From Candidatus Aenigmatarchaeota archaeon (lineage in GTDB: Archaea; Aenigmatarchaeota; Aenigmatarchaeia; CG10238-14; SCSR01): DNA of 64,000 nt. The stretch is taken from contig JAWCME010000002.1 of the NCBI GenBank assembly GCA_039091335.1, positions 13,263 through 77,262 on the forward strand, in the 5' to 3' direction. The notes beneath the pieces were generated by a model. That model saw only the letters and a list, made by a program, of their open reading frames with translations, was not told where the DNA came from and searched no databases. Position 1 is the first letter of the stretch, and each line of letters starts with the position of its first letter. Positions 16,905 through 63,331 of this stretch are shown one piece after another. The translations under genes were made by a program, and so were the position numbers.

Positions 16905-18029
16905 TCAATCTCTTAACATAAATTTATCAATTTTATTTTTTGCGTCCTCCCTTTTTTTTTGATGTTCTTTGATGAATTTTTTTATCCTTTCCGAAAGAAT
17001 TTCTTTGCACTCACCACACAACCTATTTCCTTTTTTACAATCTTCAAAAATTTTTTGCACTTTTTTATCATCTTCTTCAAATAAAAAGTAATAGTACTGA
17101 TAAACTGGGCATAATTCAGGGTTTCCACCCTTCTCCTTCTGCTCTTTTATTGTCGGTTGTCCAGCATCAAAGGCATTCATCACCTTTCTTTCAATTTTTT
17201 CTTCTGTGTCAGATGTAAATATAGCTGTTTCTGGTTCGCTCGAGCTCATCTTTCCTCCTTTTCCTAATCCAGGAAAGAACTTAGAGTGGATTTCTGCTGG
17301 CTTATAAAAATTCAGTTTTGGTGCAACATCCCTTGCCATCCTCCAGTAGGGAGATTGGTCTATTGCCGCAGGTATAAGACAGGGTATATTCTTTCCTTTT
17401 AATACTGAAGGAAGAAAGCAAGGAACCGCCTGAATTGCTGGGAAGAAAACAATTCCTATGTTTGAAGTATTTTTAAAACCAAATATTGATTTTACAGTAG
17501 AAAATGTAACATGTTTTGCAATTTGTATAGCAATCTTATACTGCGTTTTTGCATATTCTGTATTAGAGAAAATAAACGTTTTTTTATAGTCAAAGTCACA
17601 TGCTATGACATCTAGAACATTGTCATAAGTATAACCAATAGTATCTTGAAGGCTAAGCTCGGGCTTAACTAAAAACTTTTCATCATCTGTCATTTGAAAA
17701 TACAACTCTGCATCAAATTTTTTTTGTAGCCAACTTGTGAATATCCAAGGTATTAAATGTCCTATGTGTGTGTGCCCAGAAGGTCCTCTTCCTGTATAAA
17801 GAAAAAATTTCTCTCCATTTTCATATCTTTCCAATATCCAATCCATATCTCTGTGAGAGAAAAATATTTTTCTTCTCAAAAGAAAATGAAGTTCTTTCGT
17901 ATGTTTCTTTATTCTTTCCAAAAGTTCATCTGTTATTCTTTTTACGCCAAACTCCTTTATCAGTTTTTCATAATCTACTTCTCCCCTAACTTCCCAAGGA
18001 GTTACTAAAAACTTTTTTTGTTTTATCAT
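16905..18029 (-). CDS. trpS: Tryptophanyl-tRNA synthetase
   Basis: VTPWEV, YTGRGPS..HIGH, AIDQ, KMSSS. Confidence 0.95.
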   Translation of the reverse strand: MIKQKKFLVTPWEVRGEVDYEKLIKEFGVKRITDELLERIKKHTKELHFLLRRKIFFSHRDMDWILERYENGEKFFLYTGRGPSGHTHIGHLIPWIFTSWLQKKFDAELYFQMTDDEKFLVKPELSLQDTIGYTYDNVLDVIACDFDYKKTFIFSNTEYAKTQYKIAIQIAKHVTFSTVKSIFGFKNTSNIGIVFFPAIQAVPCFLPSVLKGKNIPCLIPAAIDQSPYWRMARDVAPKLNFYKPAEIHSKFFPGLGKGGKMSSSEPETAIFTSDTEEKIERKVMNAFDAGQPTIKEQKEKGGNPELCPVYQYYYFLFEEDDKKVQKIFEDCKKGNRLCGECKEILSERIKKFIKEHQKKREDAKNKIDKFMLRD

Positions 18030-50471: not shown

Positions 50472-51211
50472 TCACTTAATTTTTTCCGTCTCTTCTCTAC
50501 TTAACTTTCTAAATTTTCCATCCTTTTCTATTATTGCAATATCTATACTCTCTTCTTTTCCAATTTTTTCTGATTTTGATAGAATATCAATTGCAAGTCT
50601 TATTGCTTCCTTTCTGTCCATTCCCTCCCTCCATTTCTGTCTCAATGTTTTGTTTGCTAGCGTCCCACCCCTTCCTATGCCGTATGCCTTCCACTCATAA
50701 AGCATACCAGAAGGATCTGATTCTATTAGATGCGCTCCAGTTTTGTCAACACCTCCAATAAGAATGGTTGTTCCAAAGGGTCTTAGTCCTGCATATAATG
50801 TGGAGAGTTGCATTCTATCACCTATTGCCCTTGCAATACCCCAAACATCTATAGGTTCTTCATAGGTTATTTTATGTACTTGTGCCTTTATTCTTGCTTG
50901 GTTTATCAAAACCCTAGCATCAGCTAACAACCCAGCTGAGACAGAACCTATGTGTTCATCTATCTGGAATATCTTCTCCACGGATTCTGAAACGATTAAT
51001 GTGCCTGTTGGCTTTATTGTTGCAAGTAGCACACCGTCCTTAAAGATAATTCCAAGGCAAGTTGTTCCTCTTTTGACAGCTTCTTTTGCATATTCTACTT
51101 GAAATAGTCTTCCGTCTGGGGAGAAGACAGCAATTGTTCTATCATAACCCATATGAGCAACCTTCAGCTATTAGCTGAAGGTTAATACTCTGGAAGTATT
51201 TGTGGTGGCAT
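50472..51211 (-). CDS. psmA: Proteasome alpha subunit; exons 51211-51185 and 51152-50472
   Basis: Spliced product [31 protein letters not shown] (235 aa); GAGGTGA Shine-Dalgarno 6 nt upstream of ATG 51211. Confidence 0.92.
51153..51184 (-). other. Putative BHB mRNA intron (32 nt) in psmA
   Basis: Outer stem CCA/TGG, helix GAGT/GCTC, bulges AT^T and AT^A, perfect 11-bp inner stem; starts with an in-frame TAA. Confidence 0.85.
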
Positions 51212-51287
51212 TATTCATCACCTCATTTTTCTCCTAATCATAATAATCAATTTATTTTTATTAGTTTTTCATGTTTTAAAATGTATG

Positions 51288-51626
51288 CTATAAACCCAAG
51301 GATTTTATTGTTCCAGATACTTTTAATATTTTAAAAATTACCCTTGAGTCTCCTAGTCTTGAGATAAGACCTAAACAAGAAATAACTTTTTGCACAGATT
51401 TGTTATTGCACTTTATTACTCCAACTTGTTCTTTTTCCTTATACAAATTCTTTATTATCCACAAAGAAGTTTGAGAAAAGCCATGCTCTCCAAAAAACTC
51501 TAAGCAGGAATTAATTATTGCGTGTTCTAAATCAGAATAGACTATTGGTTCTTCGGAAATAACCTTAAATTTTATGTATCTTTCTTTTTCCCTTAGCGTG
51601 GGCAACAAATTCTTTAGTTTTTTCAT
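51288..51626 (-). CDS. rnp2: RNase P protein Pop5/Rpp14
   Basis: PTLREKERYI, VSGTIK. Confidence 0.88.
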   Translation of the reverse strand: MKKLKNLLPTLREKERYIKFKVISEEPIVYSDLEHAIINSCLEFFGEHGFSQTSLWIIKNLYKEKEQVGVIKCNNKSVQKVISCLGLISRLGDSRVIFKILKVSGTIKSLGL

Positions 51627-52051
51627 TTTTTTCTCCTCATAATATCTATCAAAATTTTTCTATGGTCAAAACCGAGATTTAGTTTTAAAGCCTCTTTTAT
51701 TGGAAAAAAATCAACTTCTTCTGCTTCTCTTCTCGCTTTAACTCTATTTCCTATGGGTTTACAAAAGTATGCAATAGATATAACATGTCCTCTTGGGTCA
51801 CGATTAGGAGAATCATAAATACCAATTAAATCCAGAATTTTTACTTCAAGTCCAGTTTCTTCTTTAACCTCTCTTATGCATGCCTCTTTTGTTTTTTCCC
51901 CAGGAATAACAAATCCTCCCGGAAGCGCATAACTCCCTTTAAACGGTTGTGTTTTTCTTTTCAATAAAAGCACTCTTCCTCTATGAATAACAACAGCATC
52001 TACAGCCACAGGCACGGTTGGTCTTGTTACTTTTATTGCAGACATTCTCAT
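51623..52051 (-). CDS. Nudix hydrolase
   Basis: GG..GE...ACIREVKEETG Nudix box, RDPR. Confidence 0.9.
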   Translation of the reverse strand: MRMSAIKVTRPTVPVAVDAVVIHRGRVLLLKRKTQPFKGSYALPGGFVIPGEKTKEACIREVKEETGLEVKILDLIGIYDSPNRDPRGHVISIAYFCKPIGNRVKARREAEEVDFFPIKEALKLNLGFDHRKILIDIMRRKK

Positions 52052-52764
52052 CTCACTATCTTTACTCCAGGCATAATCCATTTTTCATCCTTCCTCTCTT
52101 CAATCATCTTAATAATATTACTTGGAATATTTGTTATTGCATCCTTTGCTTCTTTATATTCTAGGCCAAGCTGACAAGCCATTGATACCAAGCATTCTGG
52201 GGCCCTAAGTTCCCAGCAAGATATTGCACCAGAGCAAAGTATTATTTTTGCACCAAACTTTTTTGCTAAAAAAACATTCTGTGCAATATTTTTTAATACG
52301 ATACTCCTATTCCTTTTTGTAGATAGAAGAATTTCTCTAAAGTTTATTTCTATTGCTACATTATTCTCTGCAGCCAGTCTTACTGAAACATGGTCAAGCC
52401 CGGAATCATTTCTATTGTATTCGGGATGTGTCAAAATATCAACTTCTGGCGTCCCACACGCCTTTCTGTTTAAATTTAAATCCCCTCCTCTTGCCAGTAG
52501 AATATCAAACTCTCTTCTTCTATTTGCTAATTGTATCAATTCCTTTATGTTTCTGGCTTCAAAACCTAGTAGAATTTTTATTTTGGTTTTTTCTTCAACT
52601 CTTTTGATTTCAGCTTTTAATATTTCCTCCTCTTCCTTTCTAAGAGGATAAGAAGTAAAACAAATTCCACAATATCCCAATTCTTTTGCCATGGACGCCA
52701 ATTCTTCTAGGCTAGACTCACCACCTGAGAATGCACTATGTACATGTAAGTCATACGCCTTCAT
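52048..52764 (-). CDS. rnp3: RNase P protein Rpp30 (PHP fold)
   Basis: GGDLNLNRKAC, VDILTHP, ELRAP; operon position. Confidence 0.88.
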   Translation of the reverse strand: MKAYDLHVHSAFSGGESSLEELASMAKELGYCGICFTSYPLRKEEEEILKAEIKRVEEKTKIKILLGFEARNIKELIQLANRRREFDILLARGGDLNLNRKACGTPEVDILTHPEYNRNDSGLDHVSVRLAAENNVAIEINFREILLSTKRNRSIVLKNIAQNVFLAKKFGAKIILCSGAISCWELRAPECLVSMACQLGLEYKEAKDAITNIPSNIIKMIEERKDEKWIMPGVKIVR

Positions 52765-58864: not shown

Positions 58865-58908
58865 CTAATAATAAATTGTTTTAAAATAAATTGAGTAAAG
58901 AATAAAAA

Positions 58909-59005
58909 TGGGTCCGACCGGATTCGAACCGGTGACCTCCGCCGTTCTGATACATTCGTCAGGGTTCCGCTCTCTCTCGACGTCCTACCACTAGACCACG
59001 GACCC
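58909..59005 (-). tRNA. tRNA-Val(GAC) with two introns (29/30: 58965-58977; 37/38: 58945-58956)
   Basis: Acceptor GGGTCCG/CGGACCC, T arm ACCGG-TTCGAAT-CCGGT; removing both introns gives TCGCC-CTGACGC-GGCGG. Confidence 0.88.
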
Positions 59006-59012
59006 AACTTTA

Positions 59013-61539: not shown

Positions 61540-62027
61540 ACCTTCACCTTTATCCTAACTTTTTTTGAAATGAGGAATAAAATCCCAATAATTATAAAAA
61601 CAACTAAAACAGTTATGGGTATAATGTTTAAGTACGATGAATTTTTTTTTGAAAACCCAATAAATGCCCTGCTCCCAATAAAAGTCATGGGCACACCAGA
61701 TGCCTGCAAATTGTTTTTCTCACAAATTTTTCTCCACAAATTAAGGTTTTCTTCGTGAAAATAAACTTCAAAATCATAAACTTCTATAGGATATTTTTTC
61801 TTTAGTTCTTCTAAGAATGGTTTTTCTTCAGCACAATGTGGACACCCCTGCCCCCAGAAAAAGTAAACACATATTTTTCCTTCTTCTATGGTTTTTCCAT
61901 CAGCACATACGTTGCATTCATTGCAATTTAATATCGCTTCTTCTATTTTATCACTATAACCAACATTTTGAGCATGAGCAATAATACTGAAAGCAATTAA
62001 AAAACCAATTATTGCAACATGCTTCAT
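61536..62027 (-). CDS. Exported membrane-anchored thioredoxin/glutaredoxin-like protein
   Basis: Signal peptide, GCPHC, GVP, C-terminal TM helix. Confidence 0.8.
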   Translation of the reverse strand: MKHVAIIGFLIAFSIIAHAQNVGYSDKIEEAILNCNECNVCADGKTIEEGKICVYFFWGQGCPHCAEEKPFLEELKKKYPIEVYDFEVYFHEENLNLWRKICEKNNLQASGVPMTFIGSRAFIGFSKKNSSYLNIIPITVLVVFIIIGILFLISKKVRIKVKV

Positions 62028-62035
62028 ATAACCAC

Positions 62036-63331
62036 CTAACAACAATACAGTTCTTTTGGAATCTTTTCTTCTCCAATTTTTCCAAAAGGATTTCCGTATT
62101 CTCTTATATTTTTAATCATCTTTTTATTGGTTTCTGTTTCCATCCCCATCCTTACAGAAGCTTCCCTGACATTTCTTACAATTTCAGCTACATTGATATC
62201 TAAGGGGCAATTAATCTTACATGCTTCGCATGTTGTGCAACAATAAAGTCCTCTTTCAAAAGCTATTTTCAAATCATTGATGAAAGCCGTTTTAGCTATA
62301 CCTATTCCACCTAAATAATCATACCCATAATTGTCAAAAATTTGTCTGTACACGGGACAAAAATAAAGGCAAGAACCGCAATTAATACAATAAAGTATTT
62401 CACCTAGTCCCTCTTTAATCATACTGCTTCTTCCATTGTCAACTAGAATTAAAAAAACTTCTTTTGCACCGTGTACACCATAAACAATTTTCTTCTCTAT
62501 GTCTGCTGTCTTGCTTGGTGAGGAAATTATGTTTATGTAAGTTGGAAGAGATGTGCCTGTGCCCCAAATAGAAGATGCTTTACATATAACCATAGCATCT
62601 TGCAGAGAAGGCACCAGCTTATCTATTCCACTTACTATAACATGTTTTTCCGGTATTCTTGAGATTAGTGAAATGTTTCCTTCATTTTCGAGTATGACTA
62701 TTGTTCCATCTGCTGTTATCGCATTAGCTCCTGTTAAACCAATTTTTGCCTCAACAATTTTTTTCTTCAAATAATATTTAACCCATTCAACAATTTTTTC
62801 ATGACTTTTTTCAAGTTCAACTTTGAATTTTTTCCTTATTTTTTCCAACATTATTTCAATTGGTATGTGTAGGGCTGGAGTTACGGGGTGGCTCGAAACT
62901 TCATCGCAAACCTTAACAAGAAAATCTCCACAATCGGTTTCGGTGAGTTCGTTCCTCCCTTCAAAAATCTCTTCAACTTTAATTTCATTCAAAACATTAG
63001 ACTTTGATTTCACAATTTTTTCTTTTTCTGGTATAATTTCAAGAAGCATTTTTTTTGCTTTGTTCGAATTTTCTGCCTGTAAAACTCTCACCCCATGTTC
63101 TTCTAGGTTTTTAATTGCTCTTTCCTTTAAGTTTTCTATGTTGGATATGGAAAATTCTTTTATTCTTCTAAGCTCTTTTTTGAGTAATTCGATATTTTCT
63201 AATTGCATCGCCCTTTCTCTATTCTTCTTATAAGTATTAAAAGCTTCTGATAGAGCTACTTTGGCCATACAAATTCTTTTTGAACTTAAAATTTCTTTTA
63301 TTTTCATCATAAAATAATAAGCTGAAACCAT
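62036..63331 (-). CDS. LUD-domain Fe-S protein (LutB-like)
   Basis: KSKS, ETD.G, HPVTPALH, ENEGN, CINCGSC..CPVY. Confidence 0.85.
   Translation of the reverse strand: MVSAYYFMMKIKEILSSKRICMAKVALSEAFNTYKKNRERAMQLENIELLKKELRRIKEFSISNIENLKERAIKNLEEHGVRVLQAENSNKAKKMLLEIIPEKEKIVKSKSNVLNEIKVEEIFEGRNELTETDCGDFLVKVCDEVSSHPVTPALHIPIEIMLEKIRKKFKVELEKSHEKIVEWVKYYLKKKIVEAKIGLTGANAITADGTIVILENEGNISLISRIPEKHVIVSGIDKLVPSLQDAMVICKASSIWGTGTSLPTYINIISSPSKTADIEKKIVYGVHGAKEVFLILVDNGRSSMIKEGLGEILYCINCGSCLYFCPVYRQIFDNYGYDYLGGIGIAKTAFINDLKIAFERGLYCCTTCEACKINCPLDINVAEIVRNVREASVRMGMETETNKKMIKNIREYGNPFGKIGEEKIPKELYCC

Follow-up and report, generated by a model that had tools for sequence, protein, structure and literature searches.

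Does the proteasome alpha subunit gene (psmA) of this small archaeon begin where automatic gene calling places its start, or does its mRNA carry an intron that separates the N-terminal residues from the rest of the coding sequence? The question is raised by the 5' end of a minus-strand gene in the 64,000-nucleotide stretch of DNA that we analysed (the window; C12:13263-77262), part of a 570-kb assembly of 29 contigs that is 87% complete. The gene belongs to the archaeal exosome/RNase P/proteasome gene cluster, for which Pfam matches and open reading frames gave the minus-strand order Rpp30 (52764-52048), a NUDIX gene, Pop5 (51626-51288), psmA, SBDS, an Rrp4-like and an Rrp41-like gene. The Pop5/Rpp14 gene (51288-51626, minus strand) is the direct upstream neighbour of psmA, and the 76-nt spacer between the two holds no endonuclease gene. 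As a side observation, the NUDIX hydrolase gene between Rpp30 and Pop5 (51623-52081, minus strand) overlaps each of them by a few bases, and the same slot is occupied by a CutA1 gene in two relatives (G005 and G094) and by a LAGLIDADG gene in G056, which marks it as a variable junction of the operon.

The 226 codons and stop codon that follow the ATG at 51152-51150 (50472-51152, minus strand) encode a proteasome alpha subunit according to Pfam (PF00227 Proteasome, 3.6e-50; PF10584 Proteasome_A_N, 2.4e-13), and the YDR signature is present. Upstream lies a short frame of 27 nt (51185-51211, minus strand), which consists of the ATG at 51211-51209 and eight further codons and reads MPPQILPEY. Six bases before its ATG stands the Shine-Dalgarno-like motif GAGGTGA (51218-51224, minus strand), which also precedes the long-form start of intronless relatives. 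An original prediction made from the letters of this DNA had described these elements as a strong ribosome-binding site and a nine-codon first exon, and both can be read on the minus strand as described. The 32 nt between the two frames (51153-51184, minus strand; C12:64415-64446) open, as had also been noticed, with TAA, an in-frame stop right after the last exon-1 codon. Removal of 51184-51153 sets MPPQILPEY straight before MGYDR and leaves the frame intact.

The 32 nt and their flanks fold into a bulge-helix-bulge (BHB). In the RNAfold centroid of 51193-51147 an outer helix of 3 bp is combined with a 4-bp helix, 3-nt bulges and an 11-bp inner helix closed by a 3-nt loop; the energy is -21.5 kcal/mol compared with -9.0 +/- 2.7 for shuffled sequences (z = -4.59), and none of the 200 shuffles folded as well. 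A fourth outer pair (U-G) is possible, and a dedicated BHB scan returned L=32 with an outer helix of 4 and an inner helix of 11. On the 5' side (51187-51194) the outer helix takes up 51194-51191 and the central helix, GAGU, 51190-51187. These are followed by the 5' bulge AUU (51184-51186), the inner hairpin (51159-51183) and the 3' strands (51148-51158), in which the central-helix strand GCUC (51158-51155), the 3' bulge AUA (51152-51154) and the outer-helix strand (51151-51148) succeed each other, all on the minus strand. The hallmarks of the motif are all there: two 3-nt bulges on opposite strands, a helix of 4 bp between them with all four pairs formed, and helices flanking on both sides. 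The predicted cuts were placed after the second base of each bulge, at 51185/51184 by the canonical BHB rule and the restored frame and at 51153/51152 from the fold, which takes out the 32 nt 51184-51153. Cuts at these canonical sites restore both the frame and the conserved peptide, as expected from the original prediction, which had exon 1 joining MGYDR in frame.

How much weight can a BHB fold bear in this genome? A strict scan, in which the outer helix had to reach 3 bp, the inner helix 9 bp and the insert a length of 14-150 nt, with no more than three G-U pairs, gave 32 matches in the 570 kb of this AT-rich genome against 6-16 (about 11) in 10 local shuffles, and the other two of three genome-wide motif scans gave 563 matches against about 306 expected and 215 against about 85. 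Since the motif is so common by chance, the case for the intron rests on comparison with relatives; the window intron stands above the chance background because its predicted junction recreates a conserved peptide. Further frame-restoring candidates, on C16, C19, C27 and elsewhere, came from the same high-background scans. Two other candidate mRNA introns in the window were rejected, one (17802-17865) being part of a continuous 374-aa ORF in which a class I aaRS-like motif occurs, the other (61993-62057) straddling the border of two separate genes. A self-splicing group I or group II intron was likewise discarded, because the insert is just 32 nt long and matches nothing in Rfam, whereas a ribozyme core takes hundreds of nucleotides; the Rfam search covered 50900-51500 and gave no match at E <= 1. 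A scan of the minus strand at the locus for promoters and terminators returned nothing relevant.

For the comparison, 118 genomes of the order were sampled, 114 of which have a psmA match and 113 a readable 5' end (in G097 the match covers the C-terminal part only). In 87 of the 113 the 5' end of the gene is intronless. Seven or more codons stand open and in frame before the conserved [MIL][GA]YDR in every one of these 87, and in 66 the stretch ends in PEY; the compared genomes are kin, and such counts overstate their independence. This alignment with intronless orthologues, the check proposed along with the original prediction, shows the same N-terminal extension in one piece in all 87, and agrees with the canonical fold in upholding a textbook BHB intron in the N-terminal region of psmA. 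The 12-residue stretch recreated by removing the window's 32 nt is uninterrupted in the intronless gene of G007 (L004). In the seven exon-1 codons that can be compared, the window differs by 3 bases from G007 and by 5 from G014; all these differences are synonymous, which argues that exon 1 is under coding constraint. The residue corresponding to the methionine after the intron is M in most intronless orthologues and L or I in a few. On the evidence of these aligned sequences, the methionine of MGYDR did not arise as a start codon together with the intron; it is an ordinary residue that the orthologues conserve. As an aside, the psmA match contains one in-frame TGA in five genomes (G026, G028, G033, G107 and G108), four of them from one genus, which another intron, codon recoding or an error might explain.

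The same comparison bears on the alternative that nothing is spliced at all, the protein starting at MGYDR behind a 5' UTR that holds the hairpin and, as a short upstream ORF or a remnant in decay, the nine-codon frame. Automatic ORF calling yields exactly the 226-aa protein that this alternative demands. It leaves unexplained, however, that exon 1 keeps the orthologous peptide, differs from it by synonymous changes only and has a Shine-Dalgarno site of its own, and that the conserved peptide picks up again at precisely the cuts which the structure predicts. The hairpin, moreover, is followed by no U-run on the minus strand and corresponds to no Rfam family.

The relatives whose psmA is interrupted also bear on both readings. 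Inserts of 18-35 nt within the first approximately 25 codons were found in 26 of the 113 genomes, the window included. In 17 of the 113 the insert lies at the PEY/M junction or at most 3 nt from it (site A), and the remaining inserts are located after DRT, at two positions 1 nt apart, or at V/F codons; three or four insert sites are thereby crowded into about 30 nt. Relatives with inserts after DRT and at V/F could make no proteasome subunit if these stayed in the message. Two or three inserts are present in each of the psmA genes of G022, G078, G091, G039 and G073, and such a gene is unreadable unless all of them are removed, which means that mRNA splicing must work in this lineage. By manual reading and RNAfold most of the relatives' inserts fold as BHB or near-BHB structures. 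Many have a U-U mismatch beside the central helix or one mismatch inside it, and the strict scan resolved two of the ten intron-bearing loci of the first sample. Among the site-A inserts those of L102 (G096), L126 (G094) and L139 (G068) measure just 18-20 nt and have inner stems of 3-5 bp, which brings them close to the minimum size for a BHB intron. A fourth insert position, with inserts of about 35-40 nt, was seen after FQV in L044 (G039) and L057 (G073), where three inserts fall in the first approximately 35 codons.

Nine site-A introns could be aligned. In this alignment 83.6% of the cells are paired, compared with 67.8% after shuffling and 31-52% when the partner strand is slid, and 9 of the 19 pairs have changed on both sides; the underlying structure came from one of the rows, which are related to each other, and a five-sequence version gave the same picture. 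The central helix is paired in all nine. Its third pair is A-U in six introns and G-C in three, following the synonymous choice between GAA and GAG in the exon codon, and the first outer pair is unpaired in six of the nine. Helices that co-vary across nine genomes speak, like the multiply interrupted genes, for removal of the insert from the RNA, and we regard the reading in which the hairpin stays in a 5' UTR as very improbable.

A message can also be decoded across an insert that is never removed. A stop codon and a stable hairpin are features of the bypass in phage T4 gene 60, and in psmA too the last exon-1 codon is followed by a stop codon and then a stable hairpin, the 32 nt of which the ribosomes would have to hop over. 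A hop, however, has no need of an exact BHB, in which two bulges of 3 nt are separated by 4 bp, and ribosomes landing at a matching codon, the UAU overlapping the second ATG, would leave out the conserved methionine. The relatives' inserts vary in their first codon and in length yet keep the BHB, and splicing enzymes are present in the lineage. We hold the probability of translational bypass to be practically nil.

The splicing enzymes themselves were sought in the assembly. RtcB is represented by a match to PF01139 (4.6e-85; model positions 1-209) at C25:37091-37729, in a gene cut off by the end of the contig. The search of the 87%-complete assembly for EndA was negative both with the PF01974 profile and by tblastn with the EndA proteins of six relatives (nothing below E = 0.1), which is a point on the side of an unspliced message. 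All 25 of the relatives searched for EndA have it; members of the window's own family encode it in open frames of 189-236 aa, and the frame of G069 accommodates both EndA domains in 191 aa. The missing EndA is taken here as a gap in the assembly. In intron mode ARAGORN listed 28 tRNA genes, 19 of them with introns, many of which are implausible, so this is a rough sign of heavy tRNA disruption. A side observation concerns the 99-nt tRNA gene in the window (58908-59006, minus strand), which default ARAGORN calls tRNA-Pro(CGG) and the intron mode tRNA-Leu(CAG) with a 26-nt intron; it probably contains a non-canonical intron. Three hot-spring metagenome runs, none of them recorded as RNA and two labelled metatranscriptomic but probably DNA, contributed four 151-nt contigs, which show no joints, fall on 50472-50875 only and lie outside the intron.

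If the intron is removed, is its removal regulated? Unspliced RNA would stop after nine codons, and for this reason splicing is most likely constitutive and required. The original prediction had instead suggested that splicing might act as a switch between long and short forms of the gate, with unspliced mRNA starting at the internal ATG at 51152. In such a scheme the spliced message would give the gated full-length alpha subunit and the unspliced one a subunit with two residues before YDR, nine tail residues short, and hence a 20S gate that is more open. There is something to be said for such a switch. The window gene has a single intron with an intact ATG behind it, which makes an internal start physically possible, unlike in the relatives with two or three introns, and AGGU occurs 8-11 nt upstream of that ATG. 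The available part of PMC10349882 describes N-terminal tails and the YDR motif as forming the archaeal 20S gate, and N-terminal truncation as opening the eukaryotic gate; that of PMC7714728 reports that the Haloferax BHB intron in a 5' UTR influences the expression of its gene. The comparative evidence points the other way. The methionine is conserved in intronless orthologues and preceded by an open in-frame extension in 87 of 87, the 11-bp stem and the central helix bury the AGGU together with everything up to the ATG, and the introns vary freely in sequence and, between 18 and 35 nt, in length. In addition, the distribution of the intron is patchy (17 of 113 genomes have one at this site) and goes with an endonuclease gene and not with a lineage-wide regulatory need. 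For these reasons the isoform switch found no support, and we consider regulated splicing improbable.

The endonuclease gene in question encodes a LAGLIDADG protein and is, in 14 of the 113 genomes, the immediate upstream neighbour of psmA on the same strand (identified by Pfam in five, by tblastn at E values of 1e-35 to 1e-156 in seven and by partial matches at contig ends in two). The encoded proteins are homologous, with 33-53% identity. Where the gene is present, psmA has an insert in 14 of 14 genomes and a site-A insert in 12; where psmA has no such neighbour, the corresponding figures are 12 and 5 of 99, with the reservation that in the last 66 loci the endonuclease was sought up to 1.5 kb upstream and that seven of these loci were shortened by contig ends. 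The five genomes with a site-A insert and no neighbouring endonuclease gene are the window and G096, G094, G091 and G102; in the latter four, Pop5 is upstream of psmA and Pfam detected no endonuclease gene between them. In the window's assembly, tblastn with five of the psmA-linked LAGLIDADG proteins gave a best hit of E = 0.002, on another contig. The tip of the window's hairpin recurs in the site-A introns of three genomes that do bear the endonuclease gene, G081, G073 and G078. In a psmA tree the carriers belong to two taxonomic families and to at least three supported clades in which the remaining genomes are without the cassette; 17 of the 37 forks of this tree are open, its bootstrap is not settled and its backbone is poorly resolved, and repeated loss would give the same pattern. 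A sporadic intron that tracks a neighbouring endonuclease gene has the pattern of a selfish insertion and not of a regulatory device.

The LAGLIDADG family has many members in the order, some of them free-standing and others inserted in open frames of great length. Next to six of the more distantly related free-standing copies no interrupted gene was obvious. Some distant copies adjoin conserved genes, and were seen between Rpp30 and Pop5 in L063 (G056), upstream of a radical-SAM gene in L066 (G015), about 650 nt upstream of EndA in L068 (G069) and directly upstream of alanyl-tRNA synthetase in L069 (G045). Some distant copies also have a C-terminal domain of the winged-helix/ArsR type. In L064 and L065 (G099 and G024) a 402-aa LAGLIDADG ORF is flanked by many short ORFs on the same strand, in shifting frames and without a Pfam match; these flanks could be a heavily interrupted or a non-coding (rRNA-like) host region.

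Taken together, we think it highly probable from the sequence comparisons that the window contains a genuine BHB intron in the coding mRNA of psmA, most likely constitutively spliced and most likely an orphan of an endonuclease-linked family of mini-introns. EndA would cut both 3-nt bulges, between 51185 and 51184 and between 51153 and 51152, and RtcB would join the exons and probably circularise the 32-nt intron. The product would be a 235-codon frame, whose protein has an N-terminal tail ahead of the YDR gate motif like the proteins of intronless relatives. The intron would have its origin in the family of 18-35-nt mini-introns that occupy the first approximately 25 codons of psmA in this order of DPANN-like archaea. 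These co-occur with the free-standing LAGLIDADG gene just upstream and probably interrupt the target site of the enzyme, and the window genome would have kept the intron while the endonuclease gene is absent. From this association we infer psmA to be the target of the endonuclease and the introns to be a protection against its cutting. It is tempting to go one step further and to see here an undescribed archaeal mobile element, made up of ORF-less BHB mini-introns and an upstream LAGLIDADG enzyme that cuts intronless psmA. The introns would serve as immunity patches, and repair would sometimes copy the intron alone, as in the window and the four other genomes, a form of collaborative homing; incomplete splicing might in addition leak some gate-less alpha subunit. 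This extended scenario is tentative, and we rate it as conceivable but somewhat short of probable.

It is useful to compare the psmA intron with known systems, for which we rely on the available parts of the cited papers. A BHB intron has been described in the cbf5 (pseudouridine synthase) pre-mRNA of Crenarchaeota (Watanabe 2002; Yokobori 2009, PMC2738675). In the accessible text of PMC7714728 cbf5 is named as the only reported coding-region BHB intron, and HVO_1309 of Haloferax volcanii as a case in the 5' UTR; EndA papers of 2018 and 2025 cite the cbf5 work alone for pre-mRNA. The psmA intron resembles that of cbf5, as far as described there, in being a protein-spliced BHB intron within an archaeal coding frame that has been gained and lost among relatives. 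It differs in its host gene, in belonging to a DPANN-like order with small genomes instead of Crenarchaeota and in that its splicing is predicted from sequence. It is also much smaller (32 nt, 18-35 nt in relatives), its sites are clustered within about 30 nt and it is linked to an endonuclease. HVO_1309 shares with psmA the presence of a (for psmA putative) EndA substrate in an mRNA, and removal of its intron matters for expression (PMC7714728, available part). Unlike the intron of psmA, however, that of HVO_1309 lies in an untranslated leader, interrupts no frame and was verified in vivo and in vitro.

The link to an endonuclease has parallels elsewhere. LAGLIDADG genes reside in some archaeal rRNA and tRNA BHB introns, I-DmoI and I-PorI being examples. 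The psmA intron has the splice motif, the presumed enzymes and the endonuclease family in common with such introns (for an rDNA example, see the available part of PMC2602781), but its host is an mRNA, and its endonuclease gene is free-standing, upstream of and outside an intron that has no ORF. The pattern also matches the collaborative homing described for phage group I introns (PMC3984707, in the part available). There, too, an ORF-less intron in a conserved coding target stands beside a free-standing endonuclease gene (in psmA this applies to the 14 relatives and not to the window), and intron-only alleles occur along with intron-plus-endonuclease alleles. In contrast to the group I introns, the psmA mini-introns are protein-spliced BHB introns of archaeal hosts, and cleavage of psmA by the endonuclease is a proposal. 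HAC1/XBP1 splicing by Ire1 and RtcB is similarly independent of the spliceosome, with cuts in mRNA stem-loops, ligation by RtcB and a changed protein (for the role of RtcB, see the available part of PMC8718801). It is, however, a regulated stress switch with a dedicated sensor nuclease, and at psmA nothing regulatory was seen.

A full-text literature search in a limited collection turned up no protein-spliced mRNA intron reported from a proteasome gene or from DPANN archaea, and no paper tying such mRNA introns to Nanoarchaeota or to free-standing LAGLIDADG genes. Judged by its sequence and within the literature covered, psmA is a new host gene for a BHB intron. Protein-spliced introns in archaeal mRNAs amount to essentially two published cases, the cbf5 coding region and the Haloferax 5' UTR, and with psmA an essential gene of a very small genome would depend on tRNA-splicing enzymes. 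The observation also matters for the annotation of DPANN genomes, as ordinary gene calling would silently drop the nine residues that precede the gate motif. With mini-introns tied to an endonuclease in roughly a quarter of the order, psmA would offer a testable model of how introns enter archaeal protein genes and persist in them, and the pattern bears on ideas of intron spread.

A last observation concerns the leader of psmA. A short upstream ORF, the TGA of which overlaps the psmA start (ATGCCTGA), was seen in L057-L060, L062, L098, L100, L126, L127 and L139. It was found at endonuclease-bearing loci and also in G094, G091 and G102, in which that gene is absent; the leader of the window is of the ordinary type. 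The upstream ORF is mostly about 9-14 codons long, ends in ...L-V-I-x-D-A-stop and contains a GGTGAT motif, and it looks like a cassette-specific leader or a device of translational coupling.
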